From: Candidatus Latescibacterota bacterium | GTDB taxonomy: Bacteria; Latescibacterota; CBDEFO01 | Reading direction: 5' to 3' | Assembly: GCA_965237525.1 (NCBI GenBank) | Contig: CBDEFO010000003.1 | Location: 128,001-192,000 of the forward strand | Length of the DNA: 64,000 bases | Part shown: positions 19,610-44,851 of the stretch, piece by piece | Numbering within the stretch: the stretch's first letter is position 1 | Layout of the letters: each line of letters starts with the position of its first letter | Notes under the pieces: generated by a model | The model's database searches: none | Told to the model about the DNA's origin: nothing | Seen by the model: only the letters and a program-made list of their open reading frames with translations | Made by a program: the position numbers and the translations under genes

Positions 19610-20125
19610 TTATGCTCTATGATGCAATGTCCTCAGGTCAATGTCGCGCTCAAGGGCAACGCTTTCCGGGTCTCTGAGCACCTTCAATGCCTCCATAGTT
19701 GCTTTGGCTGCGTTGTGCGGATTCTTCGACCCCAAAGATTTGCTCAGCACGTTTTGAATCCCTGCAGCTTCCAGGACAGCTCTTATTGATCCTCCTGCTA
19801 TCACACCCGTACCTGGGGAAGCTGGCTTCAAAAACACCTTTCCGGCTCCGAACTTCCCAACGATCCAGTGTGGAATAGTACCGTTCACCAGGGGTATGAT
19901 GTACATATTCTTCTTTGCCGCCTCTGTACCTTTTCTGATCGCCTCTGAAACCTCACCTGCTTTTCCCAATCCCAAGCCTATGTGTCCGTTCTTATCCCCT
20001 ACGACAATTAAAGTGTTGAAGCAGAACCTGCGTCCCCCCTTCCTTACGTGAGCCACCCTATGGATAGGAGGAACTACAGCCTCAACCAATTCTCCCAAAT
20101 CATCTGATTTTACGCGACGCGCCAA
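19610..20125 (-). CDS. rpsE: 30S ribosomal protein S5
   Basis: [23 protein letters not shown]. Confidence 0.97.
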
Positions 20126-20257
20126 AACTATTCTCCTTTAGAAGAAAATGAAGTGTTGGGTCAAGATAGTATGGACAAGATTATACACGGCAGAAAGGGA
20201 GAAGGCGTCCTGCTCACTGTCTGACTAGAAAGAATAACTGTTCTAGCGTCTACCTCT

Positions 20258-20632
20258 TTAGAACTCCAAACCGCCTTCCTTTGCACCTTCTGCCAACTCC
20301 TTGATCCTGCCGTGATACAGATATCCACCCCTGTCAAACACAACTTGGGTGATTTTTTGTTCTTGGGCCTTTTCGGCCAGAAGTCTTCCTACTTCTTTAC
20401 TTATTCCACATTTTCCGTTCTCTATTTTATTCATATTCCTGATCTGGGCACACAGGCTCGACACTCCCAAAATCGATCTTCCTTTTGTATCATCTATTAA
20501 CTGAGCCTGGATATTCTTCAGGCTCCTGCTGACTGAGAGCCTCGGCCTTTCAGTTGTTCCGGAAACCTTCCTTCTGATGCGCTTGTGCCTCTTTAGTCTT
20601 GCGAGCGTCCTTTTGATATTCTTATCCTTCAA
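20258..20632 (-). CDS. rplR: 50S ribosomal protein L18
   Basis: RPRLSV.RS, VFDRGGYLYHGR. Confidence 0.97.
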   Translation of the reverse strand: MKDKNIKRTLARLKRHKRIRRKVSGTTERPRLSVSRSLKNIQAQLIDDTKGRSILGVSSLCAQIRNMNKIENGKCGISKEVGRLLAEKAQEQKITQVVFDRGGYLYHGRIKELAEGAKEGGLEF

Positions 20633-20643
20633 TCCTATCTCCT

Positions 20644-21228
20644 TTATATTGCAGTCTTGCCAGCTTTCCGTCGTACGAACTCACCGTCGTACCTGATTCC
20701 CTTCCCTTTGTATGGCTCAGGTGGTCTCAAGAATCGGATATTCGCTGCCGTTTGACCTACTACCTCTTTGTCTATGCCACGGACGGTGATAATTGTGACT
20801 GTGCCCTCCACCTCACCACCTACTATATTCAGCTGACTGGGACTTGCTGTTTGGACCTCAAATTCGATGTCGTCAGGGGCGAGAACTGTGACCGGGTGGG
20901 AAAACCCTAATAGGAGCCTCAAGTTTTTTCCCTCTACGTCGGCTCTATATCCTATTCCTATCACATGGAGTTTCCTTTCAAATCCCTGAGTGACCCCAAA
21001 GACAGCGTTTGCCACCAAGGAGCGAGTCAGTCCCTGGAGCGCCTTCCCTGCTCTATCGTCAGAACGAGGGTAAACCTCGACTCGACCGTCCTTAAGCTTA
21101 AGCTCCACTTTGCTGTTCAACTTTACGGTCAACTCACCCTTTGGTCCCCTGACCATAGCCCGATCTTTGTCTACGTTTAAACTCACTCCCTGGGGAATAT
21201 CGACAGGTTTTTTGCCTATCCGCGACAC
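20644..21228 (-). CDS. rplF: 50S ribosomal protein L6 (with ~15-aa insertion)
   Basis: GTG start at 21228 (SRIGKKP); RPPEPYKGKGIRY. The ORF-track N-terminal extension comes from a repeat. Confidence 0.96.
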   Translation of the reverse strand: MSRIGKKPVDIPQGVSLNVDKDRAMVRGPKGELTVKLNSKVELKLKDGRVEVYPRSDDRAGKALQGLTRSLVANAVFGVTQGFERKLHVIGIGYRADVEGKNLRLLLGFSHPVTVLAPDDIEFEVQTASPSQLNIVGGEVEGTVTIITVRGIDKEVVGQTAANIRFLRPPEPYKGKGIRYDGEFVRRKAGKTAI

Positions 21229-21249
21229 TGAAATATCCTTTCTCGGGGT

Positions 21250-21365
21250 CCCCAAAAAGTCGGCGTGGGCACTGCGTGCATTTCTACTACCCCTTTCCGT
21301 GTGTAGTGACGAGTACGCGATGACAAAGCGCGGAGCGCACGAAGTGAGCGAAGAACTTTCTGGGG
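21250..21365. repeat. MITE-like element (family B), copy 2
   Basis: terminal inverted repeats CCCCAAAAAGT / ACTTTCTGGGG (10 of 11 match); internal GGCACTGCGTGCATTTCT and CGGAGCGCACGAAGT. Confidence 0.75.
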
Positions 21366-21377
21366 CGAAAAGTAATA

Positions 21378-21776
21378 TCACCAGACAAAGCAGAGGACCT
21401 CCCCCCCCACTTTGGCCAATCTCGCCTCCCTGTCCGTCATCAGACCCTTAGAAGTGGACAGAATAGCTATTCCCAGTCCGTCTAAGACTCTGGGTATCTC
21501 TCTCCTTGTGACGTACTTTCTCAGCCCCGGCTTGCTAATCCTTTCAATTCCTCTTATTATGCTTTCGCCCTCGGAGTTGTACCTAAGATATATCCTCAAA
21601 ACGCCCTGCTTCTTGTCCTCAGCGTAGATGTAATTTTCGATAAACTTATTATCTTTTAGTGTCCTGGCTATCTCTCTTTTCAGCTTGGACGCAGGCATGT
21701 CCACCCTCTTGTATCCAGCTCTCCAAGCGTTCCTTATGCGGGTCAACATATCGGCGATAGGGTCGGTCATAGACAT
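21378..21776 (-). CDS. rpsH: 30S ribosomal protein S8
   Basis: DPIADMLTRIRNA, SKPGLR.Y, ILSTSKG. Confidence 0.98.
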   Translation of the reverse strand: MSMTDPIADMLTRIRNAWRAGYKRVDMPASKLKREIARTLKDNKFIENYIYAEDKKQGVLRIYLRYNSEGESIIRGIERISKPGLRKYVTRREIPRVLDGLGIAILSTSKGLMTDREARLAKVGGEVLCFVW

Positions 21777-21854
21777 AGAGATCGTCCTCTATTTGAGAAG
21801 TTCCGTTTAAGCTTAACTACCATGTTGACTATTTCTGAATCTGTCTACATAAAC

Positions 21855-22040
21855 TTACCAGCTTGCTTTGGTAACTCCAGGGATTTCCCCCTCCAGGGCG
21901 AGTTCCCTGAAGCATATGCGGCATATCCTAAACTTCCTCATATAGCCCCTTGGCCTGCCGCATCTTATGCATCTGTTTCGATGCCGCGTGCTGAACTTGG
22001 GCTTTCTTTTTGCTTTGACCATGAAAGCCTTACTTGCCAT
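21855..22040 (-). CDS. rpsN: 30S ribosomal protein S14 type Z
   Basis: 61 aa, [21 protein letters not shown]. Confidence 0.97.
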
Positions 22041-22055
22041 AAGAAACCCTCTATT

Positions 22056-22598
22056 TTAAGCCCTAAAGGGCATTTTGAATTCTCTTAAGAGCTCGAACGC
22101 TTCCTCATCGATCCGAGCCGTGGTCACAATAGTAATATCCATACCGCGGATCTTATCTATCTTATCGTAGTCTATTTCGGGAAAGATGATCTGCTCTAAT
22201 ATTCCTATGGAGTAGTTTCCTCTTCCGTCTAAAGAGCCAGAAGACACACCTCTAAAGTCCCTTATCCTCGGCATAGTGAAAGTCAAAAGACGGTCCAGGA
22301 ACTCATACATCCTATCTCCCCTTAAAGTCACTTTACATCCTATGTTCATGCCTTTTCTCAGCTTGAAATTGGATACTGACTTTTTGGATTTCCGTAGAAT
22401 AGGCTTCTGACCGCTGATGATCGTCATATCTGCCACTGCTTTTTCTAAGGCTTTTGAATTTCCAATTGCCTCTCCCACGCCCATATTCAAGACAATCTTC
22501 TCTATACGGGGAACTTGCATTCTATTCTTGAAACCGAACCTTTCCATCAGAGCTGGAACTATCTTATTATCATAGAACTCTTTCAATCTTACTGACAC
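22056..22598 (-). CDS. rplE: 50S ribosomal protein L5
   Basis: [25 protein letters not shown]. Confidence 0.98.
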
Positions 22599-22615
22599 AG
22601 TCTATACCCTCTCCT

Positions 22616-22933
22616 TTAGGCTGAACTGATCATCTCATCGCACTTTCTGCATACCCTTGCCCTCTTTCCACTGCTCAAAACCGAAACTCCGGGACTTACC
22701 CTACTGTCACACTTGGGGCACACCAACATCAGATTTGATACCTGCACAGATGCCTCTTTTTCCAATATTCCTCCCTGCTGAGTCCCTCTGGCTTTGGTGT
22801 GCCGCTTTATAAAGTTTACTCCTTCAACTATAGCTCTTCCTTTTTTGGGAAAGACCTTAAGGATAGTTCCTCTTTTACCTATATCTTCCCCTGCTATCAC
22901 TTCGACCCTGTCGTCTTTTCTGATCTTAATCAC
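22616..22933 (-). CDS. rplX: 50S ribosomal protein L24
   Basis: V.VIAG.D.GK.G, VEGVN..KRH. Confidence 0.96.
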   Translation of the reverse strand: MIKIRKDDRVEVIAGEDIGKRGTILKVFPKKGRAIVEGVNFIKRHTKARGTQQGGILEKEASVQVSNLMLVCPKCDSRVSPGVSVLSSGKRARVCRKCDEMISSA

Positions 22934-22954
22934 CTTTGAAGACCTCCAGAATCC

Positions 22955-23323
22955 TTAGATGACCTCCGACGCCAAAGATATGATCCTCATATAGCGCTTC
23001 TCCCTGAGCTCTCTTGCAACAGGTCCAAATATTCTTGTTCCTCTCGGTTCCCCCTGACCGTCTATCAAAACAGCGGCGTTGTCGTCGAACCTTATATACG
23101 ATCCGTCGTTCCTTCTTGTCTCTTTTCGGGTTCTAACCACCACAGCCCTCCCGACTTCTCCACTTTTGACTGTCCCGTCTGGTATGGCGTCCTTGACTAC
23201 CACTACAACGACGTCTCCGACACGCGCATAGCGCTTTTTAGATCCTCCCAATACCCTTATGCACATGGCTGTCCTTGCACCGGTGTTATCCGCAATCCTT
23301 AATCTTGTGTACTCACGTATCAT
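22955..23323 (-). CDS. rplN: 50S ribosomal protein L14
   Basis: ATG 23323; [27 protein letters not shown]. Confidence 0.98.
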
Positions 23324-23350
23324 TCTTTGGGGCCCCGACAAAAAGACGCG

Positions 23351-23605
23351 CTATTTCGACTTTACGACAATATCTAGCAAGCGCCACCTTTTAGTCTTGC
23401 TCAAAGGTCGCGTTTCCATTACGCGTACAGTATCTCCAACTTTCGCTGAGTTTTCCTCATCGTGCACGTTCAGCTTTTTGCGACGCCTTATGACTTTCTC
23501 ATAGACAGGATGCCTTATGGTCCTTTCTACCTCAACCATAATTGTCTTATCGGCTTTGTCGCCCAGTACTTTTCCTACTGCAGTTTTCCTGTGTCCTCGC
23601 TCCAA
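23351..23605 (-). CDS. rpsQ: 30S ribosomal protein S17
   Basis: [21 protein letters not shown]. Confidence 0.97.
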
Positions 23606-23608
23606 ACT

Positions 23609-23857
23609 TTAGCCCTCCTCTCCCACGACAGGTTCAGATTCGGAGGATGAAGATGCAAGTTTCCTTATTCCCAGCTTATGCTCGTGGATAATAGTCGTAA
23701 GCCTTGCCACATCGCGTCTGACCTGTCTAATCCTTAAGGGGTTGTCCAGCTGTTTCGTCACTAACTGAAACTTCAAATTGGTAAGCTCCTCCTGAGAGTC
23801 TTGGAGTTGTCTTTCTGCCTCCTCCAAGGTCATATCTCTGATTTGGGAAGCTTTCAT
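23609..23857 (-). CDS. rpmC: 50S ribosomal protein L29 (C-terminally extended)
   Basis: MKASQIR...LDNP.RIR.VRRDVAR..T plus an S/E-rich tail. Confidence 0.94.
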   Translation of the reverse strand: MKASQIRDMTLEEAERQLQDSQEELTNLKFQLVTKQLDNPLRIRQVRRDVARLTTIIHEHKLGIRKLASSSSESEPVVGEEG

Positions 23858-24273
23858 CAGTCCCATTCACCTCTTTCAACGAACTTAGTCTTAATAGGGA
23901 GCTTGTGGCCGGCAAGTCTTACTGCTTCTTTAGCTAATTCTCTGTCGACTCCTTCGATCTCAAACATAATTCTTCCGGGCTTTACCACGGCCACCCAGTG
24001 ATCAGGCGATCCTTTGCCTTTTCCCATTCTTGTCTCAGCTGGCTTGACCGTCACAGGCTTATCGGGGAATATCCTTCTCCACACCTTGCCGCCCCTGCTC
24101 ATATGCCTTGTTATGGCTACCCTTGCCGCCTCTATCTGGCGGTTGGTGACCCACCCCGGTTCTATGGCCTGGATCCCGTACTCTCCGAAGGAGATATTTA
24201 CACCCCTTGACTCTTTACCCTTCATCCTGCCCCTTTGCTGCTTTCTCCATTTCACTCTTTTAGGCATTAACAT
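23857..24273 (-). CDS. rplP: 50S ribosomal protein L16
   Basis: [24 protein letters not shown]. Confidence 0.98.
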
Positions 24274-24337
24274 ATTTTAGTCCTTAAAGAATCACGAAGT
24301 GCCAAAGATCACTTCCAACAGAACTGATCTTAAAGCA

Positions 24338-25003
24338 TTAAGAATCCCCGCTGCTTTCGGGAACTGGGGAGGGTTTTAAGATCTCACCGTGACATATCCA
24401 TACCTTCACACCGGTGGTTCCCGATTTTGTAAATGCCGTGGATCTGGAGAAATCTATATCTGCCCTCAGCGTGTGGAGAGGGACCCTTCCCTCCAATTCC
24501 TGTTCCCTACGCGCTATCTCTATGTTCCCCAAACGCCCAGCGCATTCGATCCTGATCCCTTCGGCTCCCATACGCATAGCTGATAGAACAGCCCTTTTCA
24601 TAGCCCTTTTCACAGACACCCTCTGTTCGAGCTGACGGGCTATGTTGTCTGCTACCAACTTTGCGTCTAACTCAGGCGACTTTATCTCCTGAATGGCTAT
24701 ATATATATCTTTGTCTGTGATGTGCCTAAGCTCATCCCGCAGCTTGTCCACCTCAGCCCCTTTCCTGCCTATCACGATCCCCGGCCTTGCGGTGTGAATG
24801 TTTATTGTGACTCTTTTAGGTGCCCTTTCGATCTCGATAGTCGAAATCCCCGCCCTTTGAAGTCTGCTCTGTACGTACTTTCTGAGCATTATATCTTCCT
24901 CAAGAAGATCTGCAAAGTTCCCCTCTTCTGACGGAAACCATCTGGACTTCCAGTCCTTAACTATCCCGAGTCTTAATCCTATAGGATTTGTCTTTTGTCC
25001 CAA
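24338..25003 (-). CDS. rpsC: 30S ribosomal protein S3
   Basis: [32 protein letters not shown]. Confidence 0.98.
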
Positions 25004-25024
25004 TGTGCATCTCCTTATAAAGCT

Positions 25025-25243
25025 AGTAGACAGGCCATCTCATCCCCTCCCCTATGCCCGACCCCAATAGATTTAATTGTGGGCTCAATCGGGGATTACT
25101 TCGGTTTTCCCTCCTAGCAATGAAATGACAAAAGGCAAGAGCAGGTCATAACTGAAGGTCTCACCAGTGAGCAGACTGTCAGTTTGAACCAAGGCCCAGA
25201 GTCTTCATCCCAGAGTGCAGCCAAGGGTCTGCGAAGCAATCTC
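25025..25243. repeat. composite repeat cluster (family A, D and C fragments) in the rplV-rpsC spacer
   Basis: AGTAGACAGGCCATCTCATCCCCTCCCC; CCCCAATAGATTTAAT...CAATCGGGG; GATTACTTCG...GCAATGA; GCGAAGCAATCTC. Confidence 0.6.
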
Positions 25244-25322
25244 ACTATAGACTGCATTGGCCTGTATGTTATCTTCTTTTTTGGATTTCTATAATTTTGT
25301 CCAGACGATTTTGATCCGATAC

Positions 25323-25673: not shown

Positions 25674-25776
25674 CTGATATACCCTCACCGCCTAAACTGC
25701 AGTAGAAGGAGGCGTTGCCTCTCGTCCTTGTGTGTCGTCTACTTGCAGTTGCCTTTCGCTTTTGTTGTCCACTTGT

Positions 25777-26064: not shown

Positions 26065-26067
26065 AAT

Positions 26068-28792: not shown

Positions 28793-29986
28793 TTACTCTA
28801 AAACCTTTGTTACCACGCCTGCGCCTATGGTTCTCCCGCCCTCGCGGATAGCAAACCTGAGTTCCTGCTCCATAGCGATGGGCTTCTCCTCCAGATCCAC
28901 AGACATCGTGACGTCGTCTCCGGGCATGATCATCTCAACACCCTCAGGGAGCTGGACAACTCCTGTCACATCGGTTGTTCTGAAGTAGAACTGCGGGCGG
29001 TATCCGGAAAAGAAGGGCTTTTCCCTTCCACCTTCTTTTGCGTTCAATATGTACACCGAAGCTTCGAAACTCGTGTGAGGTGTTATGCTTCCCGGATCCG
29101 CGATCACCATACCTCTTTCTAGTTCTTCCTTATCCACGCCCCTTAAAAGGAGACCGACGTTATCTCCGGCGATGCCTTGATCCAGAATCTTTCTGAACAT
29201 CTCTACACCCGTCACTACCGATTTTCTCGTCTCCCTCAGCCCTACAATTTCCACCTCATCTTGAACATTAATCGTGCCTCTTTCTACCCTCCCTGTTCCG
29301 ACAGTTCCCCTACCTGTGATGCTGAAGACATCCTCAACAGGCATCAAGAATGGTAGATCCACGTCCCTTTCTGGAACCGGGATATATTCATCCACAGCAG
29401 CCAACAGCTCGTCTATACACTGTGTATTCTCGTTGTCCTCTTCCGCCTCCACGGCCAAAAGCGCAGAGCCTCTTATCACGGGGATCTCGTCTCCTGGAAA
29501 CTCGTACTCGCTCAAAAGTTCCCTTGTCTCCAGTTCCACCAGCTCTAAAAGGTCAGGATCATCGACCATATCTACCTTATTGAGGAACACTACGATATAC
29601 GGCACGTTCACCTGGCGTGCCAGAAGGATATGCTCCCTTGTCTGAATCATGGGCCCATCTGCTGCTGATACGACCACGACAGCTCCGTCCATTTGAGCGG
29701 CACCCGTGATCATGTTCTTGATATAATCCCTGTGGCCAGGACAGTCAACGTGGGCATAGTGCCTCTTTTCTGTCTGGTACTCCACGTGGGAAATCGCGAT
29801 AGTGATGCCTCTTTCCTTCTCCTCCGGAGCCTTGTCAATCTCTTCGAAGGGGGTGTAATCGGCAAGTCCCTTTCTGGCCAAGACCTTCGTTATAGCAGCC
29901 GTTAAGGTCGTCTTTCCGTGGTCTATGTGGCCGATTGTGCCGATGTTCAGATGGGGCTTTGTCCTTTCAAACGTTTCCTTTGCCAT
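28793..29986 (-). CDS. tuf: elongation factor Tu
   Basis: [30 protein letters not shown]. Confidence 0.99.
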
Positions 29987-30184: not shown

Positions 30185-32272
30185 CTATACTGCTACACCG
30201 TGAATTGTGGCTATGATTTCCTCTGCTATATCTTTGGGAACTTCCTGATACTTTGAAAATTCCATAGAATAGATAGCCCGTCCCTGTGTGAGTGATCTGA
30301 GACTGGTGGTATAGCCAAACATCTCGGATAGCGGAACAACAGCGCTTATGATCTGAGCATCTTGTCTCGGTATTATACCTAGGATGTTGCCTCTCCTTGA
30401 ATTTAAGTCCCCCAGGACCCCACCCAGGTACTGTTCAGGCACTACCACTTCCACATCCATTACGGGCTCTAAAAGATACGGATCTGCCCGTTTGACAGCA
30501 TCTTTAAAAGCCATGCTCGCCGCTATCTTGAACGCCACCTCTGACGAATCCACCTCATGATAGGAGCCATCGTGCAGCGTAACCCTGACATCCTCCACCG
30601 GGTACCCCGCAAGCACACCTCCTGTCATCGCCTCTCTGACGCCCTCTCTAACAGGCGGGATATATTCCTTAGGAATAGTACCCCCTCTGATCTTATTTTC
30701 GAATATCAAACCGCTTCCCGATTCGACCGGACCCACCTCAAGATGTACGTGCCCGTATTGGCCTCTTCCACCCGTCTGACGGACGAACCTGCCCTCGCTT
30801 TTAACAGTTTCTCTTATAGATTCCTTATATGCAACTTGAGGTTTTCCTATGTTGGCTCCCACCTTGAACTCTCTTAGGAGGCGATCTACGATAATTTCTA
30901 ATTGCAGCTCGCCCATCCCTCGGATGATGGTCTGTCCTGTTTCTTCATCTAACTCTACCTTCAGAGCCGGATCTTCAGCCGTAAACTTGGCCAGGGAAAC
31001 CCCCATTTGATCCTGATCCGCCCTGGTCTTCGGTTCTATTGCCACAGACACAAGAGGCTCGGCAAATTGTATGGATTCCAATATGATAGGGTGATCCTCA
31101 GAGCACAGGGTCTCGCCTGTGCTTGTGTTCTTAAGACCTACAGCTGCAACTATGTCCCCCACGTGAATCTCTTCTATGGCCTTTCTCTTATTGGCGTGCA
31201 TCTGAAGCACCCGTCCGATCCTCTCCTTTTTCCCTGTATTGGCATTGAGTACCGAAGATCTTGCCTTCAAGAGGCCAGAGTAGACTCTAAAAAACGTCAA
31301 AGTACCCACATGTGGATCCGTTTGAACCTTGAAAGCCAGAGCAGAGAAAGGTTCTTCTTCAGATGGACCTCTGACCTCCTGCTGACCTGTATAGGGATTA
31401 AGCCCCTTAACAGATGGTATATCCGAAGGCGAGGGAAGGTAGTCCAGCACGGCGTCTAGGAGCCTGTGCATTCCCTTGTTCCTTTTGGCCGAGCCGCATA
31501 AGACGGGAACAACCCGAATCTCTATAGTGGCCCTCCTCAGGGCCTCTCTTATCTCTCTGGGGTTTATTTCGTCTCCATCAAGAAACTTTTCCAGAAGGTG
31601 ATCGTCGCATTCTGCTACTGTCTCCATGAGCCTTGCGCGGTAGAAGAGCGCTTCATCCATAAGATCGGAGGGGATCTCGTTTTCCGTATAGACAGCGTCC
31701 AGGTTCTCTTCATTGTAAGTTATGGCTTTCATCGTCACAAGATCTAAAAGCCCCGTAAACATATCCCCTGCGCCTATCGGGACCTGAACCGGAACGAACT
31801 TTGCTCCCAACCTTTGGCTCATCATATCCGTAACTCTGAAGAAATCAGCTCCTGTCCGATCCATCTTATTCACAAAAGCGATCCTCGGAACGCTGTACTT
31901 ATCTGCCTGGCGCCACACTGTCTCAGACTGCGGCTCAACGCCTCCCACGGCGCAGAATATCGCTATAGCTCCGTCCAGCACCCTAAGAGAACGCTCCACC
32001 TCAGTGGTAAAATCCACATGACCTGGAGTGTCAATAATATTTATCCTGTGTTCTCTCCAAAAACACGTGGTCGCAGCCGAAGTGATGGTTATACCGCGTT
32101 CTCTCTCCTGATCCATCCAATCCGTCACAGTCGTCCCCTCGTCCACCTCACCTATGCGATGCGTCCGGCCCGTATAGAACAAAATCCGTTCGGTAGTCGT
32201 AGTTTTTCCCGCATCTATATGTGCCATTATGCCTATATTACGCGTATTATATAAAAAGCAATCTTTTGACAT
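30185..32272 (-). CDS. fusA: elongation factor G
   Basis: [35 protein letters not shown]. Confidence 0.99.
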
Positions 32273-32904: not shown

Positions 32905-33276
32905 TCAGCTGGGCTTCTTTGTGCCATATTTGGATCTCCCCTGCTTCCTGTCAGTAACGCCCATAGTATCCAGAACCCCACGTACTATGTGATACCTCAC
33001 ACCCGCAAGATCCTTAACGTGTCCGCCTCTTATAAGAACAATAGAGTGTTCCTGAAGATTATGACCTTCGCCTGGTATATAAGCTGTCACCTCGATACCG
33101 TTAGTCAACCGTACCCTTGCTGTCTTCCTCAGTGCAGAGTTCGGTTTTCTAGGAGTTGACACCCTTACCTGAACGCACACACCTCTTTTTTGAGGCGATC
33201 CACCAAGTGCTGGTGTGGACGTCTTGTTGGAGGCCTTCTTGCGCCCCTTTCTGATCAATTGATTTATAGTGGGCAA
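32905..33276 (-). CDS. rpsL: 30S ribosomal protein S12
   Basis: TTG 33276 (PTINQL); [22 protein letters not shown]. Confidence 0.98.
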
Positions 33277-33450: not shown

Positions 33451-36400
33451 TCAGTCGTTTATCGTCAATAGTTCTGGCTGTTTGTCCTTCCCTTCGTCGC
33501 CAAGAACCTCTGCCTCCGGAACTGTCGTCTCATCTTCTTGGGCAGGTTCGCCGTCAGGCTCTGTCAGGGCCTCTATCTCTATTCCTTCGCCTTCTGCGGC
33601 TCTGTAGTACGCGCTTCGGTAATGTGGGGACCCGGTCCCGGCAGGGATCAGGTGTCCGATGATCACGTTTTCCTTGAGTCCTAAAAGTTTATCCACCTTG
33701 CCCTGGATCGCAGCTTCGGTCAGTACTCTGGTCGTCTCCTGGAACGAGGCAGCCGAAATGAAGCTGTCAGTCCTCAAAGATGCCTTAGTTATCCCGAATA
33801 AAATAGGCTCAAATGTCGCCGGCTCTCCGCCTTCTTCCCCCACCTTGTTATTTTCATCTGCGAATTTGAATCTATCGACCTCATCACCTTCCAAAAATTC
33901 TGTATCGCCGGGATCTATCACCCTGACCTTTTGAAGCATCTGACGCACGATCACTTCTACATGCTTATCGTCTATCTTCACGCCCTGGATCCTATAGACT
34001 GCCTGGATCTCGTTCACCAGATATTCCTGAACCTTATATATGCCTTGAATACTTAAGATATCGTGGGGATTTATTGGGCCTTCGTTGAGTCCTTCTCCTG
34101 CTGTAACCCTGTCTTCTTCTCTCACCTTGAGGTGTTTGCCATAGGGGATCACATATTTTCTGTCTTCGCCGTCATCTCCTACCACGATTAGCTCTCTGGA
34201 GCCCCCTACCATTTCGCCCAACTTTACAATACCATCTATTTCGGTCACGACGGCAGGGTTCTTGGGTTTTCTGGCTTCAAATAGCTCGGCTACCCTTGGG
34301 AGTCCCCCAGTAATATCTCTCGTCTTACTCCTTTCCCTGGGTATTTTGACCAGAAGACTTCCGGCAGAAACCTCCTGTTCATCGTGCACGAACAGATGGG
34401 CGCCCACAGGGATGATGTAGTTTCTGATCCTGTTGCTATTTTCGTCTATTATTTCGATTCTGGGACTCAGGGATCTATCTCTTTGCTCTATGATCACTCT
34501 TTCCTTCAGACCCGACGTCTCATCCAATTCCTCGCGGAAGGTCACGTTCTCCACTATATCGGCGAACATGGCTTTCCCCTTAACGTCTGTCAGGATAATA
34601 TTGTTGTACGGATCCCATTCATACAGGAGCTGATTTTCCTTTACAGAATCCCCGTCCTTCACCTTCAAAAGCGCGCCGTAGGCAATATCATGTCTTTCTC
34701 TCGGTCGCTTATAGTCGTCCAGGATCTCTATCTCTCCTTTGCGACTCAAAACCCTCAGGCCTTCTCCTTCTTCTTGGCTTAAGTACTCTACGCATTCAAT
34801 ATCCTTAAACCCTATAGTCCCTTCCCTTTTTGTCTCTATCTTCGATTGTTCGGCGATCCTGCTGGCCGTTCCGCCGATGTGGAACGTCCTCAGCGTCAAC
34901 TGTGTCCCCGGTTCTCCTATGCTTTGAGCCGCTATTACCCCAACTGCATCGCCTATTTCGACGGGCCTGGCTGTGGCCAGGTTTCTCCCATAGCACTTGA
35001 CACATACACCTCTTCTGGACTCGCATGTAAGGACAGAGCGAATGTGCACCGACTCTATCCCGGCGTCCGAGATGGAAGCTGCGATTTCCTCATCTACAAG
35101 CTCATCGGCAGAGGCGATCAGTTCATCTGTGGATGGGTCATAGACATCGTACAAAAGCGTCCTGCCGACGATGCGGTCTGAAAGAGGTTCTACAACTTCT
35201 TCCCCTTCCTTTAGTTCTACAATTTCGATACCAAGTATAGTATTGCAGCCTTCCGCCGTGACGACAATATCTTGAGCCACATCCACCATCTTTCTGGTCA
35301 GATACCCAGCCTCTGCAGTCTTTAAGGCTGTATCTGCAAGTCCCTTTCTGGCACCGTGAGTGGAGATAAAATACTCCAGCACAGATAGTCCCTCTTTGAA
35401 ATTTGCTATAATAGGGGTCTCGATAATCTCACCAACTGCTCCTGTGACCTTTCTTTGAGGCTTTGTCATTGGACCCCTCATTCCGCCCAACTGATTGATC
35501 TGCTCGCTGCTGCCCCTTGCTCCCGAATCCCACATCATATACACAGGATTGAACCCCTCATCTATCTCTTGAAGAGCCTCAACCATAGCCTGAGATACGT
35601 CGGTGGTAGTGTGCTGCCAGACATCAATTGTCTTATTATATCTCTCACCGTCTGTGATGATGCCTCTTGAATACTGATCCTGTATGGTCTTAACCTCTGA
35701 AAGCGCCGCATCTATGAGCTTATCCTTAACCTCCGGAATCACAACATCGTCTATGCCTATGGTCACCCCTGATTTGGTCACATAGTTAAATCCCAGATCC
35801 TTGAGCCTGTCCGCAAATAGGGCGGTCTGTTGACCTCCATACTTTCGGTAGATCTGGGATGTGACTTCCGTGACCTTGCTGTTATTCACAAGCTCGTTTA
35901 CGAACTGATAACCCTGAGGCAGGATCTCGTTGAAGATAATCCTACCCACAGTGGTCTCCAAAAGCTCTCCATCTATCCTTACTTTGATCTCGCTGTTTAG
36001 AGCGATCTTCCCGTGGCTATGAGCTGCCAGGGCCTCGTCCTTATCTGAGAACACTTTCCCTTCGCCCAGATCCTTAGGCCTAACCTTCGTCAGATAGTAG
36101 CATCCCAAAGCTATATCCTGGGGCTTGTCTATCACAACTGGAGAACCGTCCGAAGGCTTCAACAGGTTATTCGACGAAAGCATCAGAACTTTCGCCTCTG
36201 TCTGTGATTCAAAAGACAGGGGCACGTGCACCGCCATCTGATCTCCGTCGAAGTCAGCGTTAAACGCCGCACATACTAAAGGATGGATTTTGATAGCCTT
36301 CCCTTCAACCAGCACGGGCTGAAACGCCTGAATTCCAAGTCTGTGTAGAGTAGGAGCCCTGTTTAGGAGCACGCAGTGCTCGGCTATGATCTCCTCTAAA

Positions 36401-37614
36401 ATATCCCATACTTCGGACTTTTCCTGCTCGACCATCTTCTTGGCGCTCTTGACTGTCTGGACCAAGCCCTTCTCCTGGAGTCTCTTGATGATAAAGGGCT
36501 TAAAGAGTTCCACCGCCATGCTCTTGGGCAGACCGCATTGATGCAGCTTCATTTCTGGCCCTACTACGATCACAGACCTTCCGGAATAATCAACTCTCTT
36601 TCCCAGAAGGTTCTGTCTGAATCTGCCCTGTTTGCCCTTCAAAAGATCAGAAAGGGATTTTAAGGGTCTGTTGCCATTGCCCCTTACGGCTTTTGATCTT
36701 CTCCCATTGTCAAAGAGGGTATCCACAGCTTCCTGGAGCATCCTCTTTTCGTTTCTCAGGATCACTTCGGGGGCCTTAATCTCTATCAGCTTCTTCAGGC
36801 GGTTGTTTCTATTGATCACACGCTTGTACAGATCGTTTAGATCAGAAGTTGCAAATCTTCCACCATCTAGTGGAACCAGCGGCCTCAAATCCGGCGGAAT
36901 AACCGGTATCGCGTCCATAATCATCCACTCTGGTCTATTATTGGACTGCCTGAATGCCTCTACTACTTTCAGTCTCTTTAGGGCATCCTGCTTCCTCTGC
37001 ACAGAGGTCTCCATTCTGGCCTGAGTCCGCAAGCTGGCCGAAAGTTCCTCTATATCTATTTTTTGGAGGACTTTCTTCACGGCGGGCGCCCCTATACCCA
37101 CCTCGAAGTGACACCTTTGTTCCTCCAGGTCGATCACCTCATCCTCAGAAAGGAGATCCTTTTCATTTATCGGGGCATCTCCTTTGTCGATCACTACGTA
37201 CGACTCGTAGTAAAGGATCCTTTCCAAATTTCGTACTGAAATATCCAGAAGATAGCTCATCCTGGAGGGGAGAGATTTGAAATACCATATATGAGATACA
37301 GGAACAGCCAACTTGACATGCCCGAGCCTTTCTCTTCTGACCTTACTCTGAGTTACTTCCACCCCGCACCTGTCGCATATGACGCCTTTGTACCTTATCC
37401 TCTTGTACTTTCCGCAGTGGCACTCCCAATCTTTTACAGGTCCGAATATCCGCTCGCAAAAGAGTCCATCTCTTTCGGGCTTGAACGAACGGTAGTTGAT
37501 AGTCTCGGGTTTGGCCACCTCTCCATGTGACCACTTCAATATACTCTCAGGAGACGCCAACTGAACCCTAATACAATTAAAATCCCTGGACTTCCTTAGC
37601 ATAGAATCGATCAC
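33451..37614 (-). CDS. rpoC: RNA polymerase beta' subunit
   Basis: Zn ribbon, [10 protein letters not shown] catalytic motif, [17 protein letters not shown]. Confidence 0.99.
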
Positions 37615-37680: not shown

Positions 37681-40600
37681 CTACTCTTGTAAAGCTTCGC
37701 CGTTTTCCAGACGGATATCTAAACCTAAACTCTGAAGTTCCTTTATCAAAACGTTAAACGACTCCGGTATCCCCGGCTCAGGAGAGTTTTCACCCTTGAC
37801 TATGGCCTCGTAGATTTTGGATCTTCCCGCCACATCGTCCGACTTGACTGTCAGCATTTCCTGTAAAAGATGGGCCGCGCCGTAAGCCTCCAGAGCCCAG
37901 ACCTCCATCTCTCCAATGCGCTGACCGCCAAACTGAGCTTTCCCTCCCAGTGGCTGCTGAGTTACGAGTGAATACGGACCGATAGATCGTGCGTGTATCT
38001 TATCTGCCACAAGGTGTGAGAGCTTCATCATATAAAGATAGCCAACTGTAACCTCTTTGTCAAAGGGCTCTCCTGTTCTTCCCTCGAAAAGGACAGTCTT
38101 TCCGCTTTCAGGGAGTCCCGCCTCCTTCAGAGTCGCTTTGACTTCATCCAAAGTTGCCCCGTCGAATACAGGAGTCGCTACATACCTGTTCAGCTCTTTT
38201 GCCGCCCACCCCAAGTGAGTCTCTAATATTTGGCCCAAGTTCATCCTACCTGGAACTCCGAGGGGATTTAGTATAACATCCACTGGCGTTCCATTCGGAA
38301 GATAGGGCATATCCTCCTCGGGCACGATCTTAGACACGACCCCTTTATTCCCGTGTCTTCCTGCCATCTTATCCCCTACCGAGAGTCTCCGCTTCCTTGC
38401 CACGTAAACCTTTATAAGCTGCACAATCCCTGGGGGAAGCTCATCTCCCCTTGTGATCTTATCTATGTTGTGGTCCAAACGTTCCTTCACTGACTCGATC
38501 TCGTCTTGGGCAATCTTTATCAATTGCTCTACGATCCGATTTACTTCATCGTCAGCCGTCCATCCATCCTCTGGCCGAGCTCGGTCAAAATCGATGCTTT
38601 TGAGTAGCTTTTCAGTAAAAACCCGACCTTTATTGACCACCACAGAGTCATCTTCCTTGTTCCAAAGAGTCCTAGATCTTCTGTGTTGCAGGAGTCCTCT
38701 TATCTGTTCATCCCTCAACGATTTGATGTTTTTTATCATACTTTCTGCTTCTACTCTCAGCCCCTCTATCTTTTCTTTATCCACCTTTTTAGTGTTTTCA
38801 TCTCTTTCCTTCCTTGAAAAGACTACTCTTCCCATAACCACGCCGTCCATTCCTGCAGGAGCTCTCAGTGAAGCATCTCTTACGTCCCCCGCCTTCTCAC
38901 CGAAGATAGCCCTTAAGAGTCTTTCCTCGGGTGAAAGCTCAGTTTCACCTTTTGGGGTAACTTTCCCCACCAAGATATCGTTTGGGCCTACTTCTGCCCC
39001 AACACGAATGATCCCGCTTTCATCCAGATTTCTGACGAACTGTTCGTTTACGTTGGGGATCTCTCTTGTTATTTCCTCCACGCCCCTTTTTGTATCCCGC
39101 ACCTGAATCTCGAACTCTTCAATATGTATAGAAGTAAACACATCCTCTTTTAACAGCCTTTCGCTTACCAATATAGCGTCCTCGAAATTACATCCGCTCC
39201 AGGACATAAAAGCCACCAGGACGTTTGCTCCAAGCGCAAGGTCTCCTCTGTCTGTGGATGGACCGTCCGCTAAAACGTCTCCCTTTTGCACCTTATCCTT
39301 TACTCTTACGATGGGCCTTTGATTTACACAGCAGTCGTGATTAGACCTTTTGAACTTAGTCAGGTGGTATCTATCGCAATCGGAGAACCCCAATGAGGAC
39401 GATTCGTCTTTACCTGATTTATCTTTCTTTACCGTGATCCTATCTGCCGTCACCTCTATTACCTGTCCGGAGTTTTTGGCCATAATCATAACTCCGGAGT
39501 CCATCGCAGTCTTGCGCTCGATTCCTGTGCCTACGTATGGAGCATGCGTCTTCAAAAGAGGGACGCCCTGACGCTGCATATTCGACCCCATTAAGGCTCT
39601 ATTTGCATCGTCGTGCTCCAAGAAGGGGATCAGTGCTGCAGCCACGCTTACCAACTGCTTGGGGGACACGTCCATATAGTCTATCTCTTTTGGATACACG
39701 ATGGGGAAATCTCCTCTCTTTCTGGCCTTAACCAAAGAATCAGAAAACCTCCCGTTTTTATCTAATTTCGAATTAGCCTGAGCTATAGTGTACCTATCCT
39801 CGGTATCTGCAGACAGATACTCTATCTTTGAGGTCACTTTTCCGTTTTTCACCACCCTGTAGGGAGTCTCCAAGAACCCGAGCGAGTTTACCCTTGTATA
39901 GGTGCTCAACGAGGCAATAAGACCGATGTTAGGACCCTCTGGCGTCTCTATAGGACATATCCTCCCGTAGTGGGTGTGATGCACGTCCCTGACCTCAAAT
40001 CCTGCTCGATCCTTTGTCAAGCCTCCCGGTCCAAGAGCCGAAAGTCTCCTTTTGTGCGTCAACTCATCCAAAGGATTTATCTGCGCCATAAACTGAGAAA
40101 GCTGGCCGCTTCCGAAGAACGACATTATGCCTGTCGAGACTGTCCTTGCATTCACAAGTGCTTGAGGCGTTAGAGAATCGCTGTCTCTTAAGCTCATTCG
40201 CTCTCTTATAGTCTTTGCCATTCTGGAGAGCCCAGCTGAAAACTGTTTTGATGCGAGTTCTCCGACCGATCTCACCCTCCGATTGCCCAGATGATCTATA
40301 TCGTCTGTGTAGCCGCCGCCCCTGTGAAGCTCCGAGAGATAGCCTATGATGCTGATAAAATCCTTCTTATGAAGAACTGTGCTTTTGAGGGGTATGTCCA
40401 GTTGCAGACGCTGATTTATCCTGTAGCGCCCCACTTCTCCAAGGTTATAGCGCTTAGGGTTAAAAAATAGCTTCTCCAAGTGACTTTTAGCTGTCTCAAC
40501 GTTAGGAGGATCACCCGGCCTCAGAAGGCTATATATCCTAGACAAGGCCTCCTCTTGGCTGTCGCACGTATCCTTATTTAACGTATTCTTTATGACCCCA

Positions 40601-41628
40601 TTTTCTACCTCTTCTGGATCCATACTGACGACTTCTATACGCTTGATACCGGACTTTTGGAGAGACATTACGGAATTCTCTGTTACAACCTCGAATTCTT
40701 GAAGAGTAAGCTCCCCGTTCGACTCGTCCACGATATCCTCAAGGCAGATATGCCCGATTATGTCTTCATCTACAGTCCTTCTTTGGCTGGAGAGCACCTG
40801 AACTTCCTTTACCCCGACGCTTTTGATAATCTCAAGGTGCTCTGTATCCAGCTTTGTGAGCCAGTCTATCAGGACCTCTCCGGAATCCTTGTCTAATATC
40901 TCATCCATCAAGATTTGGTTCGCCAAATTCTTATCTATCTTCTTTGACTTCCTTGATCCATGGAACACAGCAAGGATGTGACCCTCAGTGGGGAATCCTA
41001 AAGCCCTCAGAAGGACTGTTACGGGGATCTTTCTTTTTCGTTCGATCTGGACATACATAAGGTCGTTTATGTCCATGCTGAACTCGAACCATGTGCCTCT
41101 GTCGGGTATAACCCTCGCTGAGTAGAGGTTCTTTCCGTTGGGGTGAGTCGTTTCGTCGAAGAAGCAGCCGGGAGATCGATGAAGCTGACTTACTATCACC
41201 TTTTCGACCCCATTGATTACAAACGTCCCGTTTTGGGTCATTAGTGGAAGCTCACCTAAAAAGACAGATTGTTCTATAATATCCTTTATCTTTTCCTTAT
41301 CCTGACGGTCCCTGGAAATAAGCCTCAAAGTCGCCTTCAGGGGCGCTGCATAGGTCGAATCTCTTTCCTGGCACTCCTTGATGCTGTATTTGGGTTTGCC
41401 CATAGAGTAGTTGACAAACTCCAAAGTATATGCATTGTGAATATCGGAGATCGGGAAAATACCCCTGAATACCGACTGAAGGCCCTTATTTTCTCTCTTT
41501 TCAGGCGGTACATCAGCTTGAAGAAACAAATCATAAGAATTGATCTGGATATCCAAAAGATCGGGTAATTCGATAATCTCAGGCGTCTTGGCGTAGGACT
41601 TACGCGCTATAATTCCTATCTCGTCCAA
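37681..41628 (-). CDS. rpoB: RNA polymerase beta subunit
   Basis: [38 protein letters not shown]. Confidence 0.99.
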
Positions 41629-41763
41629 ATCAGCTCACGCTCCTTAAGTTAGAAAATGACGAACCATAAACGAACGTTAAGGGCTTCAAGGGCCAGCCCT
41701 TTTCACCGTTCACATCTTTAGAGGCAGAAGGCATTTCTAACTGATACTTGACTTTTTAGATTC

Positions 41764-42162
41764 CTACTTTATCTCAACTGTAGCGCCGACCTCTTCGAGT
41801 TTGGCCTTAATATCTTCGACTTCTTCTTTGGATGCGCCTTCCTTAACGGAGTTAGGGGCACCATCCACCAGAGCCTTAGCCTCCTTGAGTCCTAAATCTG
41901 TCAGCGATCTTACCACCTTTATAACCTGAATCTTCTTTTCTCCGACCTCGGTCAGGATCGCATCGAACTCTGTCTGTTCCTCCTCCTGGGGAGCCTCAGC
42001 CTCTGCACTGGGAGCAGCGGCTCCAGACAATACGCCGGGAGCAATCGCAGTTACGCCGAACTCGTCCTCCAAAGACTTCACAAGGTCTGTCAACTCCAAG
42101 ACTGATAACTCCTTGATAGATTTGATAATTTCTTCAACGCCGCTCTTGCTTTTAACAGCCAT
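41764..42162 (-). CDS. rplL: 50S ribosomal protein L7/L12
   Basis: [24 protein letters not shown]. Confidence 0.98.
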
Positions 42163-42208
42163 ATTTACTACCCTCCAATTCTACTGTCGTTAAGCAAATG
42201 TATAATTA

Positions 42209-42742
42209 TCATCCCGATTTATCTTCTTCTTGTCTTTTCTTGGCTACAGCATCCAAGGTGCGCACTAATTTTGAGGAGATCCCAGCCAAAGCCCAGACTA
42301 ATCTGAAGATCGGAGACTGCACCCCTTGGACCACCTTGGCTAAAATCTCATCCTTTGGCAAAACCTTCGACAGAGCATCTATTTGATCCACATTGAAGAA
42401 GCTTCCCTCTACAAGTCCGCTCTTGATAGTTGGCTTTCCGGTGTCCGTGGCAAACTTTTTTAACAGTCTTGCAGGTGCCACAGGGTCACCTTCTGTATAA
42501 GCAATAGCAATAGGGCCTGTTAAGAATTCTTTTAACTGGGGAAGCCCTGCCTTATCTGCCGCAAGCCTCGTCAGAGAATCCTTTACGACCCGATAAGAGA
42601 TTGAGGATTCCTTCAACGTCCTCCTCATGTCCGTCATAGACTGTACATTTATGCCCGTAAAGTCCGTCAGGAATATGCCGCTGGACGAAGAAAGAATATT
42701 CGTCAGCTCTTCCACAATCGCTTCTTTTTCAGGTGCAGGCAT
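42209..42742 (-). CDS. rplJ: 50S ribosomal protein L10
   Basis: DFTGI.V, RVVK, LTGPIAIA; directly upstream of rplL. Confidence 0.95.
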   Translation of the reverse strand: MPAPEKEAIVEELTNILSSSSGIFLTDFTGINVQSMTDMRRTLKESSISYRVVKDSLTRLAADKAGLPQLKEFLTGPIAIAYTEGDPVAPARLLKKFATDTGKPTIKSGLVEGSFFNVDQIDALSKVLPKDEILAKVVQGVQSPIFRLVWALAGISSKLVRTLDAVAKKRQEEDKSG

Positions 42743-42772
42743 GATCTTTTATCCTTGCCACTTATCCGTGAG

Positions 42773-42836
42773 AATAGACAGCATACAGAGAAGGGAGGAG
42801 ATACCCCTGTCTACCCCCGATTGAATCTATCGGGGG
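42773..42836 (-). repeat. family A element carrying a family D palindrome
   Basis: AATAGAC AGCATAC AGAGAAGGGAGGAGATACCCCTGTCTA + CCCCCGATTGAATCTATCGGGGG (42814-42836). Confidence 0.8.
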
Positions 42837-42856
42837 TTACTTATCATCTGTCAAGA

Positions 42857-42894
42857 ATCCCCACGCTCCGTGTGCATCCCCACACTCTGTGTGC
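42857..42894 (+). repeat. 19-nt tandem direct repeat
   Basis: ATCCCCACGCTCCGTGTGC / ATCCCCACACTCTGTGTGC. Confidence 0.7.
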
Positions 42895-43150
42895 GGAATC
42901 TTATCTTTACCGAGTGATCTTTTGATATCATAGCTAATAATTGCGAATTCTCTGCGGGTTGAGATTATCAGGGGATTTACGATAGCTTTCTCTTTTTCTT
43001 AATACAATTTCCCCGCTGAGACCTGCCCGAGCACCTCCCAGGATAAGAGATTCGAACGGTTCTCCCTCATCTTGGAAGTAGCTTCAATCCAAAGCATGAT
43101 CCGTTTACATTGAGGGGTTGCTTATTGTCCGCGAAGATCTCATTTTCTCT

Positions 43151-43592
43151 TTATCTAAGTCCAGATTGCCAGTATTCCGCCTGAAATAACCTGAAATAAT
43201 AAGTAGAACTAAAATGTAATGTATTAATAAAGTAGGGTTTTACCGGTTTGTCTTCCCACAAAACGCTGGCCAGTAGAACTGGGCAGATGAATCCAATCCA
43301 AACCAAAAAACCCGCCTCTACTCCTTGAAGTGAAGAGGTTGCATGCGTATACGCAATAATGTTGGCTAGTACGTAACTCATTAATAATACTCCAATAAAC
43401 GCTGACACATAAGATTTGCCCATTCCCTTTGCTTTTTCTTTTTCCAGCTCCTCTTCACTCATGCCAATAAGTCTTACCCATGCATTTCCGAACAGAATTG
43501 GAGAGTACCATAATGCTCCTATTACGCTTGGTGTACATAGAAATAAGCGATACTATGAAAACTGCTGGAAGGTTAATTTCTGGTAGTGGCAT
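43151..43592 (-). pseudogene. DUF1761-family membrane protein, frameshifted
   Basis: MPLPEINLPAVFIVSLISM (ATG 43592), frameshift, then VIGALWYSPILFGNAW...MGKSY. The 3' end is disrupted, including a 10-nt tandem duplication CCTGAAATAA at 43180-43199. AT-rich. Confidence 0.75.
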
Positions 43593-43659
43593 CTTATTTT
43601 AGTGTGTTGGGTGCTGGACTTTAAGGAGCTTTCGGGATATAGGTCTCTACCCTGAATCT

Positions 43660-44355
43660 TTATTTGTTGGTCAGGACCGACTCACTCAGTTTGATTCCCG
43701 GACTCATTGTAGATGAAAGCGTAATAGACCTTACATACTGTCCTTTTGCCGCAGGAGGTCTTGCTCTCAGAATAGCGGTAAAAAGCGCCTTCGAGTTTTC
43801 CTTCAATTCTTCATCCTCAAACGATATTTTGCCCACAGGGACGTGGACATTCCCTGTGTTGTCCACCCTAAACTCTACTCGACCAGCTTTGGCCTCTTTC
43901 ACGGCCTTTCCTACTTCCTGGGTAACCGTACCGCTCTTAGGGTTCGGCATAAGTCCACGGGGACCCAATATCCTTCCGAGCTTTCCCACCTTACTCATCA
44001 TCGCGGGCACAGCTATAGCTAGATCGAAATCTGTCCATCCGCCTGATATTCTCTGGACTAACTCGTCTGCCCCTACGTAATCTGCTCCAGACTCTTTGGC
44101 TTCCTCAGCCAATTCACCCTCAGCAAATACCAAAACTACTGTCTGTCTTCCCGTACCGTGAGGTAACACCAGCGTTTCCCTTACTATTTGATCGGCATGC
44201 CTTGGATCTACTCCCAGCCGCATAGAAACTTCCACGGTCTCATCAAACTTGCTCTTATGCATTCCCTTTAATAGTTTCAATCCCTCCTCTAGGCCGTAAC
44301 GGTCTTTCCGGTCGAAAGTCGAAACGTTTTCTTTATATTTTTTGCCCCTGAACAT
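43660..44355 (-). CDS. rplA: 50S ribosomal protein L1
   Basis: ATG 44355; [27 protein letters not shown]. Confidence 0.98.
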
Positions 44356-44422
44356 ACGAAGTTCCTCATTTATTGTGAGAGCATAAGCTCTTGCAACCAT
44401 ACCTCAAAGTTTTGCTGCAGCT

Positions 44423-44851
44423 CTATTCTCCCTCAACCGTAATCCCCATATTCTTTGCAGTTCCGATGACTATTTTCATAGCAGCATCAATACTTGTAGC
44501 ATTTAGATCGGGTATCTTGACTTCTGCTATTTCCCTTATTTGATCGATCGTTATAGTTCCCACCTTTTGCCTATTTGGCTCAGGTGATCCTTTTTCGATA
44601 TTCAAAGTCTTTTTCAGAAGGAACGACACAGGAGGTTTCTTAGTTACAAACGAAAAGGATCGGTCGGCATAGATCGTAATCTCCACGGGAATAAGGAGTC
44701 CAGCATCGCTCTGGGTCCTTGCGTTAAACTCCTTGCAAAACTCCATCATATTCACGCCGTGAGGCCCCAAAGCCGGAGCTATAGGAGGTTCTGGCTTTGC
44801 GCTCCCCCCTGAAATTTGAAGTTTGACTGTTGCAATAACTTTCTTAGCCAA
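44423..44851 (-). CDS. rplK: 50S ribosomal protein L11
   Basis: [22 protein letters not shown]. Confidence 0.97.

Follow-up and report, generated by a model that had tools for sequence, protein, structure and literature searches.

Residues that are rare in other bacteria are concentrated at published antibiotic-resistance positions in the core gene-expression cluster of a Latescibacterota genus, analysed here in a 64,000-nucleotide stretch of a Candidatus Latescibacterota bacterium genome (the window; G000:C3:128001-192000, G000 being the source genome) that carries the standard rplK-rpoBC-str-S10-spc-alpha cluster on the minus strand. Across ribosomal proteins S12 and L11, elongation factor G (EF-G) and the RNA polymerase subunit RpoB, 15 of 74 such positions hold a rare residue, against 2.98 expected. 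Whether selection by natural antibiotics fixed these residues, with compensation following, to leave a ribosome and polymerase insensitive to streptomycin, rifamycins and fusidane-type drugs is, in our judgement, evenly balanced; reduced sensitivity of the targets to streptomycin and rifampicin, irrespective of its cause, is probable. A first-pass annotation had proposed substitutions at five drug-binding sites (streptomycin, rifamycin, fusidic acid, spectinomycin and thiopeptide), with general long-branch divergence as the alternative. Window translation and motif mapping recovered all of its motifs in place on the minus strand, including those it had listed as a caveat because they deviate outside drug sites (GPMIQ and GGREKP in EF-Tu; GVPGRMN in RpoB).

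The 38 cluster proteins were aligned with those of Escherichia coli, other Latescibacterota and outgroup genomes (outgroup depth: S12 and EF-G, approximately 130 rows; RpoB rifamycin region, 63; L11, 35; S5, 18; sampling was unbalanced, Bacillota, Pseudomonadota and Gemmatimonadota being numerous). Excluded were four taxonomically uncertain loci (L045, L051, L068, L072), EF-G rows below 52% and EF-Tu rows below 55% identity to E. coli, and the unpublished genome G272, on which no claim depends. The 74-position panel used whole lists, collected after the window substitutions had been seen: 5 positions for S12 (Ngo, Letten and Engelstadter, bioRxiv 10.64898/2026.06.09.731231; E. coli numbering, Met counted), 19 for RpoB (the curated 57-allele panel of Bolourchi et al. 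2025, PMC12337354), 47 for EF-G (Table 2 of PMC3993491 gives 45, and PMC11190147 adds F88 and V407; window numbering equals Staphylococcus aureus numbering at anchor residues) and 3 for L11 (PMC9769715). A residue was called rare if it occurred in at most 2% of outgroup rows, and the expectation was taken from conservation-matched columns of the same proteins.

Measured in this way, which is the comparison of drug positions with other conserved columns that the first-pass annotation had called for, the excess was approximately fivefold over the prediction from overall divergence (estimates of the expectation ranged up to 3.6; 0 of 200,000 simulations reached the observed count). The exact tail was 1.8 × 10−6 with pseudocounts, and 9 × 10−6 when only the local background was used (14 of 46, 3.81 expected), both P values being uncorrected for a window chosen for its pattern and for the non-independence of sites within one pocket. 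Neither of the two individually significant proteins (S12, 3 of 5; EF-G, 8 of 47) accounted for the excess alone (12 of 69 versus 2.89 expected without S12; 7 of 27 versus 1.05 without EF-G). The closest relative, G001, which belongs to the same genus (EF-G 97% identical) and is the sole close one among 168 phylum genomes, also scored 15 of 74, with the identical residue at every one of the 15 matches; 18 phylum genomes outside the genus scored 2–7, with 1.9–3.1 expected. Lineage-private changes, counted only at columns conserved in the outgroup and in the other families, fell on 8 of 45 listed columns versus 15 of 633 others (odds ratio 8.9, P = 5 × 10−5), and the same count gave 0–2 in 16 genomes outside the genus. 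A third count, over S12, RpoB and EF-G, gave 10 of 47 for the window and G001 and 0–4 for the other 53 genomes. Four of the genus residues are identical to reported resistance alleles (K43R in S12, 516A and 522D in RpoB, H457Q in EF-G), to which P91A in S12 can be added.

The streptomycin site, one of the two strongest and most genus-specific cases, involves the following features:

32905..33276, minus strand: rpsL (S12), with K43R (33148-33150), R86H (33019-33021), P91A (33004-33006) and T39V
33136-33156, minus strand: S12 motif TPRKPNS
33001-33027, minus strand: S12 motif GGHVKDLAG

Three of the five S12 panel positions are changed in a genus-specific manner: K43R (1 of 132 outgroup rows and 3 of 69 phylum rows), R86H (0 of 134 and 0 of 69), which we take to be a resistance allele, and P91A (1 of 134 and 0 of 69). 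The sole rpsL copy thus holds a curated streptomycin allele, 43R, which was found in 359 of 15,721 species (bioRxiv 10.64898/2026.06.09.731231). In Thermus, P90A confers resistance (PMC3884664, citing Carr 2005), and P90 dependence alleles can be suppressed by K42 changes (PMC3884664). The survey of intrinsic rpsL alleles (bioRxiv 10.64898/2026.06.09.731231) shares K43R with the genus and has both 86 and 91 among its panel positions, but it reports almost only single 43R or 88R and scores 86C and 91L rather than 86H and 91A; the genus, by contrast, changes three S12 positions jointly and helix 18 of 16S ribosomal RNA (rRNA) with them. The single 16S gene (L001) carries C526A (G000:C8:1626491) together with C504U/G541A, U508A and A535G, so that 5 of 36 invariant helix-18 positions are changed versus 6 of 724 elsewhere in the molecule, as judged on 25 other genomes. 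None of the curated rrs alleles 523C, 885A, 912G and 913G is present, all four positions being canonical; rsmG is present in the genome, and no TlyA match exceeded the cut-off.

C526A is frequent in unrelated, divergent metagenomic 16S genes (80 loci, L475-L554), where U505 accompanied A526 in 65 of 72 parsed loci and G505 was kept in 7; the genus retains G505 despite A526. Positions 505 and 526 are, we presume, a pseudoknot pair, which the U505/A526 pattern fits. Since C526A lies within what we take to be the binding site of the common 515F primer, amplicon surveys may under-count the genus.

The S12 changes recur outside the phylum. The outgroup genome G223 carries them as K43R, R86K and P91A (L465:1486-1905) in a protein named as Paenibacillus, and the same triad occurs in 11 of the 15 listed members of its cluster; of the 30 top-ranking family loci (L446-L474), 11 have the triad and 19 have none of the three changes; a metagenomic protein, P0158, has K43R, R86Q and P91A. 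Because related genomes share alleles, these occurrences would represent about three origins rather than thirteen, and positions 43, 86 and 91, changing as a recurrent set, probably form an epistatic unit, one substitution compensating for another. The text of PMC5155152 makes no statement on rpsL in Paenibacillus.

The fusidic acid site is the second strong case:

30185..32272, minus strand: fusA (canonical EF-G), with H457Q (30902-30904), T436A (30965-30967), R at the G451 position, F437L, L430F, V407L, P404A and V90T
30896-30913, minus strand: EF-G motif GELQLE
30962-30976, minus strand: EF-G motif EDPAL
31055-31066, minus strand: EF-G motif FAEP
32000-32014, minus strand: EF-G motif DFTTE

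The protein scores 1070 bits on TIGR00484 and its gene sits between rpsG and tuf; the fusidic-acid-resistance allele H457Q (Table 2 of PMC3993491) is therefore found in the canonical str-operon EF-G, as in FusA-type resistance. H457Q occurs in 0 of 127 outgroup rows and 0 of 47 phylum rows, is confined to the genus's own cluster among the 120 nearest EF-G homologues, and appears in 11 of 146 aligned representatives of 50% clusters, almost all of the 11 being divergent EF-G-like proteins. T436A, V407L, L430F and V90T are likewise specific to the genus, P404A is clade-level (38 of 47 phylum rows), and F88, D434 and R464 are kept. Within domain III, 5 of 18 listed versus 1 of 40 unlisted conserved positions are changed. 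D434, T436 and H457 form a network to which V90, V407 and G451 are described as linked (PMC11190147), and the lists for FusA-type S. aureus (as given in PMC11190147, PMC3993491 and PMC12493156) include, besides the H457Q allele, positions T436, V90, V407, G451, L430 and P404 of the same domain III network. Unlike the S. aureus mutants, which are costly and come from a treated pathogen, the genus is environmental and has 7–8 positions fixed in its main EF-G, mostly with residues other than the clinical ones in those lists. No FusB/FusC-family protein (PF07299) was found in the source genome, which is 96.6% complete.

At the rifamycin site the claim of altered residues stands as well, with most of the alteration inherited:

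37681..41628, minus strand: rpoB, with S509G (40105-40107), D516A (40084-40086), S522D (40066-40068), R540K, R143K and S1105G
40051-40113, minus strand: RpoB rifamycin-region motif

From the distribution of residues, the pocket appears to have been altered early in the phylum, with S509G, 516A and R540K added on the genus branch: of 25 other Latescibacterota (for example, L113-L132 and L192-L211), 23 have 522D, which is absent from all 63 outgroup rows, and residue 516 is changed in 23 of 25 (516Q in 22 and 516A in one, G009). Both 516A and 522D, here in the sole rpoB copy as in intrinsic rpoB resistance, belong to the curated 57-allele panel (PMC12337354, supplement) and occur in 4 and 33 rows, respectively, of its 18,127-species dataset, in which 8% of species carry rifampicin alleles; the rifamycin producer Amycolatopsis rifamycinica has 522D, and the pair 516A + 522D is listed for Ca. 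Xianfuyuplasma coldseepsis (PMC12337354). The main text of that study does not name Latescibacterota, in which 522D is nearly phylum-wide. On the strength of the near-phylum-wide 516Q and 522D, most of the phylum is predicted to be rifamycin-insensitive.

For the remaining two of the five proposed sites, the thiopeptide site found moderate support and the spectinomycin site was rejected as a feature of the genus:

44423..44851, minus strand: rplK (L11), with the thiopeptide helix at 44762-44794, V24I, G25A (44777-44779) and Q30P
19610..20125, minus strand: rpsE (S5), with a clade-wide 10-residue motif at 20033-20062

The L11 helix position G25 is changed to alanine, a state absent from all 35 outgroup and all 25 phylum rows and seen in 4 of the 120 closest homologues, two of them from this genus (3 rows unparsed), yet the contact prolines P22, P23 and P26 and the 23S bases A1067 and A1095 are all intact. 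Thiopeptide-insensitive Bacillus megaterium mutants have P22S, P23L or G25V; the genus shares the change of G25, in a milder form (G25A), and differs in keeping the prolines. Q30P, noted after the enrichment test and outside the panel, is common elsewhere (12 of 35 outgroup rows) and matches Q29P, one of three L11 changes in a producer of the thiopeptide persiathiacin (PMC11731312). In 23S rRNA, C1072G, C1092G and G1099C are changed as a set (3 of 43 versus 17 of 1,202, P = 0.03). The S5 motif containing K23H, by contrast, recurs in 14 of 18 phylum rows but in 0 of 18 outgroup rows, and 16S rRNA is canonical at its spectinomycin bases (G1064, C1066, C1192 and G1193); the S5 positions compared are those we take to be resistance positions. 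Among the rRNA drug sites, helix 18 is altered and A1067, A1095, the spectinomycin bases and the peptidyl-transferase centre are canonical. RpoB S522D with its changed 516, the S5 motif and the EF-Tu motifs are inherited background, and the S12 changes, most EF-G changes, L11 G25A and RpoB S509G and R540K are specific to the genus; of the caveat motifs, those of EF-Tu are clade-level, and RpoB S1105G is private to the genus.

Selection by natural antibiotics followed by compensation, the likeliest of the histories considered, would order these residues as follows. A rifamycin-insensitive polymerase would have been inherited first, with S522D dating from an early Latescibacterota ancestor and, together with D516A, lowering rifamycin binding. 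On the genus branch, selection would then have acted at the streptomycin and fusidane pockets, and perhaps at the thiopeptide cleft, with secondary changes restoring function. Judging from mutants in other bacteria, K43R and P91A would remove or weaken streptomycin action, and C526A, its partner G505 being unchanged, would alter the helix-18 side of that pocket. In EF-G domain III, H457Q and T436A may disrupt the D434-T436-H457 network, which gives the fusidic-acid face its shape, with V90T, V407L, L430F and the change at 451 repacking the core linked to it; G25A, V24I and Q30P in L11, with the swapped 23S 1072/1092/1099 set, may weaken thiopeptide binding. Such drugs can plausibly reach such cells, as fusidic acid, thiostrepton and rifampicin all inhibit Rhodothermus, a diderm relative within the FCB group (PMC8614978). 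A broader version, in which a marine, probably host-associated genus rebuilt four antibiotic-class pockets under long natural exposure and arrived at low-cost, fully compensated forms, is offered tentatively, at somewhat less than even confidence, and with the same reserve we suggest that it combines a K43R/R86x/P91A solution in S12, reached independently by unrelated bacteria, with a main EF-G insensitive to fusidanes. Insensitivity, compensation and the selecting agent are what we infer from residues fixed in both genomes; which compounds did the selecting, and which habitat provided them, is guesswork.

Several observations weigh against antibiotic selection. Taken singly, RpoB (3 of 19, P between 0.05 and 0.2) is borderline and L11 (1 of 3) non-significant. 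The window was picked from approximately 250,000, so that a P value near 2 × 10−6 is just marginal after selection. R86H and C526A lie outside the curated panels, C526A does not accompany the S12 triad in G223, and K43R alone gives resistance, so that three S12 changes plus rRNA changes exceed what the drug would require. The source genome keeps a second EF-G-like gene with a canonical pocket (C8:525821-527989; EDPTF, GELHL), which, if active, might be a drug-sensitive factor open to locking on the ribosome; most phylum genomes likewise have a second EF-G match. Other targets are unaltered: EF-Tu matches consensus at 22 of 22 elfamycin and GE2270A positions, and the peptidyl-transferase centre, A2058/A2059, L4, L22 and L16 are canonical. 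Known alleles may remain silent in another background (PMC12337354). Finally, the factor-docking surface holds three of the sites (streptomycin, fusidic acid and thiopeptide) and has also changed in L10, at further L11 positions and in 23S helices 43–44.

The main alternative is a retuning of the decoding and factor-binding centre unrelated to drugs (for example, to suit the accuracy or speed needed by a cell that grows slowly). On this account S12, helix 18, EF-G domain III, L11, L10 and 23S helices 43–44 would have co-evolved, the RpoB changes would be separate and older, and any insensitivity would be a by-product; we regard it as a credible minority explanation. One further feature belongs here:

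42209..42742, minus strand: rplJ (L10, factor-binding stalk), with genus-private L41M, N57D and P130L, 3 of 11 conserved columns being changed

Private changes are indeed numerous in L11 (5 of 38), L10 (3 of 11), EF-G (7 of 208) and S12 (4 of 64) and absent from L2, S4, S11, S13 and S19, the three 23S substitutions C1072G, C1092G and G1099C changed together, and S12 is contacted by EF-G domain III (PMC11190147). Resistance screens, moreover, would pick exactly those conserved sites at which change is viable and tunes function. However, domain by domain, it is the listed resistance positions and not their neighbours that have changed, and several residues are exact selected alleles, which retuning does not predict. 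Nor does it cover RpoB, in whose rifamycin pocket S509G, 516A and R540K were added on the genus branch; because RpoB is not part of translation, one translation-based cause cannot cover all sites.

We consider improbable a second alternative, in which a long, isolated branch diverged neutrally or under weak selection and one of 250,000 windows happened to hit many listed positions. Beyond G001 the genus lacks close kin (the next EF-G is just 70–72% identical, and no relatives of intermediate distance were found), 43R and rifampicin alleles occur naturally at the frequencies given above, C526A is common in unrelated divergent 16S genes, and other candidate targets (GyrA, GyrB K447W, type 2 isoleucyl-tRNA synthetase (IleRS2) and 16S A1409-U1491) are plain phylum background. 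Against this, the organism is a deep Latescibacterota genus whose branch is not long: a tree of eight proteins places the source genome inside the phylum with an ordinary root-to-tip depth, and across all proteins 2.75% of conserved columns are changed, versus 0.75–3.1% in 11 relatives, so that long-branch divergence, the alternative raised at first pass, does not explain the pattern. The equally isolated lineages G002, G003, G009 and G014 have only 2–3 of 74, and the initial selection of sites included neither the helix-18 cluster nor the recurrence of the S12 triad. An assembly error, chimera or laboratory-type resistant mutant in one sample is very improbable. The source genome is a metagenome assembly with 4% contamination, but G001, a separate single-contig genome, has the same residues (which largely refutes it), related strains appear in runs of several studies and the proteins place inside Latescibacterota.

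Natural resistance-type alleles are already known for rpoB, rpsL and rRNA, and intrinsic target-site resistance has so far been mapped drug by drug, mostly in cultured species. Natural rRNA drug-site variation has been surveyed by Ekemezie et al. (bioRxiv 10.1101/2024.10.31.621234), with variants similar to those seen here (A1409-U1491, A2057-U2611); the available text of that study concerns rRNA only and does not treat stacking across protein targets in one lineage. Our literature search, which covered few subscription journals, returned nothing on this lineage, on cross-target stacking or on the S12 triad. Stacked changes on several independent targets make it testable whether such residues reflect antibiotics or a by-product of translation tuning. 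The S12 triad is directly testable in cultured Paenibacillus with and without it, and the EF-G offers a natural probe of a domain III that lacks the otherwise invariant His457. Streptomycin with rifampicin might act as a selective medium for culturing the phylum. If antibiotic selection is correct, the genus records an undescribed chemical pressure and general paths of compensation.

Several additional candidate targets proved to be shared beyond the genus, and two further cluster genes were inspected:

28793..29986, minus strand: tuf (EF-Tu), with clade-level GPMIQ and GGREKP and with A86R in DCPGHRDY (29723-29740)
33451..37614, minus strand: rpoC, with L746P (motif 35458-35481) and R799K

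EF-Tu A86R, an arginine adjoining the catalytic histidine in switch II, is shared with G002 and G003, and the motif DCPGHRDY presumably resembles that of the archaeal/eukaryotic factor. RpoC L746P (0 of 62 outgroup rows, 1 of 25 phylum rows) has no established drug link; as a putative microcin J25 allele, it is mentioned neither in PMC6347699 nor in our literature search. The GE2270A position list was that of PMC8183687. Changes at quinolone positions of GyrA (HPHGE..YPT, 28 of 28 parsed rows) and GyrB (W447, that is K447W, 20 of 22 rows) are phylum-wide, gyrB being split across two contig ends (G000:C5:25447-30628 and C1:123055-123564). Most position lists used for the canonical targets (elfamycin, L4, L22, L16 and the peptidyl-transferase centre) are those we take to be standard. 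The IleRS2 gene with GVHH (G000:C6:109257-111545), a motif of the mupirocin hyper-resistance type (PMC10485003), is present in 6 of 9 relatives; 8 of 25 parsed rows, this genus among them, have MurA C115D (C4:538009-539289); and 16S A1409-U1491 is found in all 19 other phylum genomes. No folA, rlmE or atpE match was obtained in the source genome with E. coli queries. A crude motif scan of 12,615 open frames for drug-biosynthesis genes, as would accompany self-resistance in a producer, found no ketosynthase, condensation or carrier motifs, terpene and RiPP (ribosomally synthesized and post-translationally modified peptide) routes lying outside its reach.

The source genome has one copy each of S12, RpoB, L11, S5 and EF-Tu, and the cluster region is also covered by contigs from other sequencing runs. 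One such run, X6, represents a related strain, and none of its listed differences in the rifamycin region falls at codons 509, 516 or 522; runs X11 and X15 contributed no usable coverage. At least one-quarter of sampled words were present in 10 runs from 4 studies, with sample labels that are coded or read 'metagenome'. Because matching pieces occur in a sponge-metagenome RNA library (X13; short pieces, near-identical to the source genome) and in a marine sediment run (X12; pieces 93–99% identical), the habitat appears to be marine and possibly host-associated.

Elsewhere in the window and genome, the following were seen:

42746-43660: an insert separating rplA from rplJ and containing a 103-codon open reading frame (43151-43462) that has no NCBIfam match
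50893-52293: an IS1182-family transposase, split in two
52925-54157: a thioredoxin reductase with a fused glutaredoxin domain

In strain X6, 91 bases stand in place of the rplA-rplJ insert. The 23S gene (L002) is, at 3,150 bases, longer than in most relatives, and is genus-private at further invariant positions (U2554C in the A-loop, U2593G/A2600C, C2527G/G2536C and A1129G).

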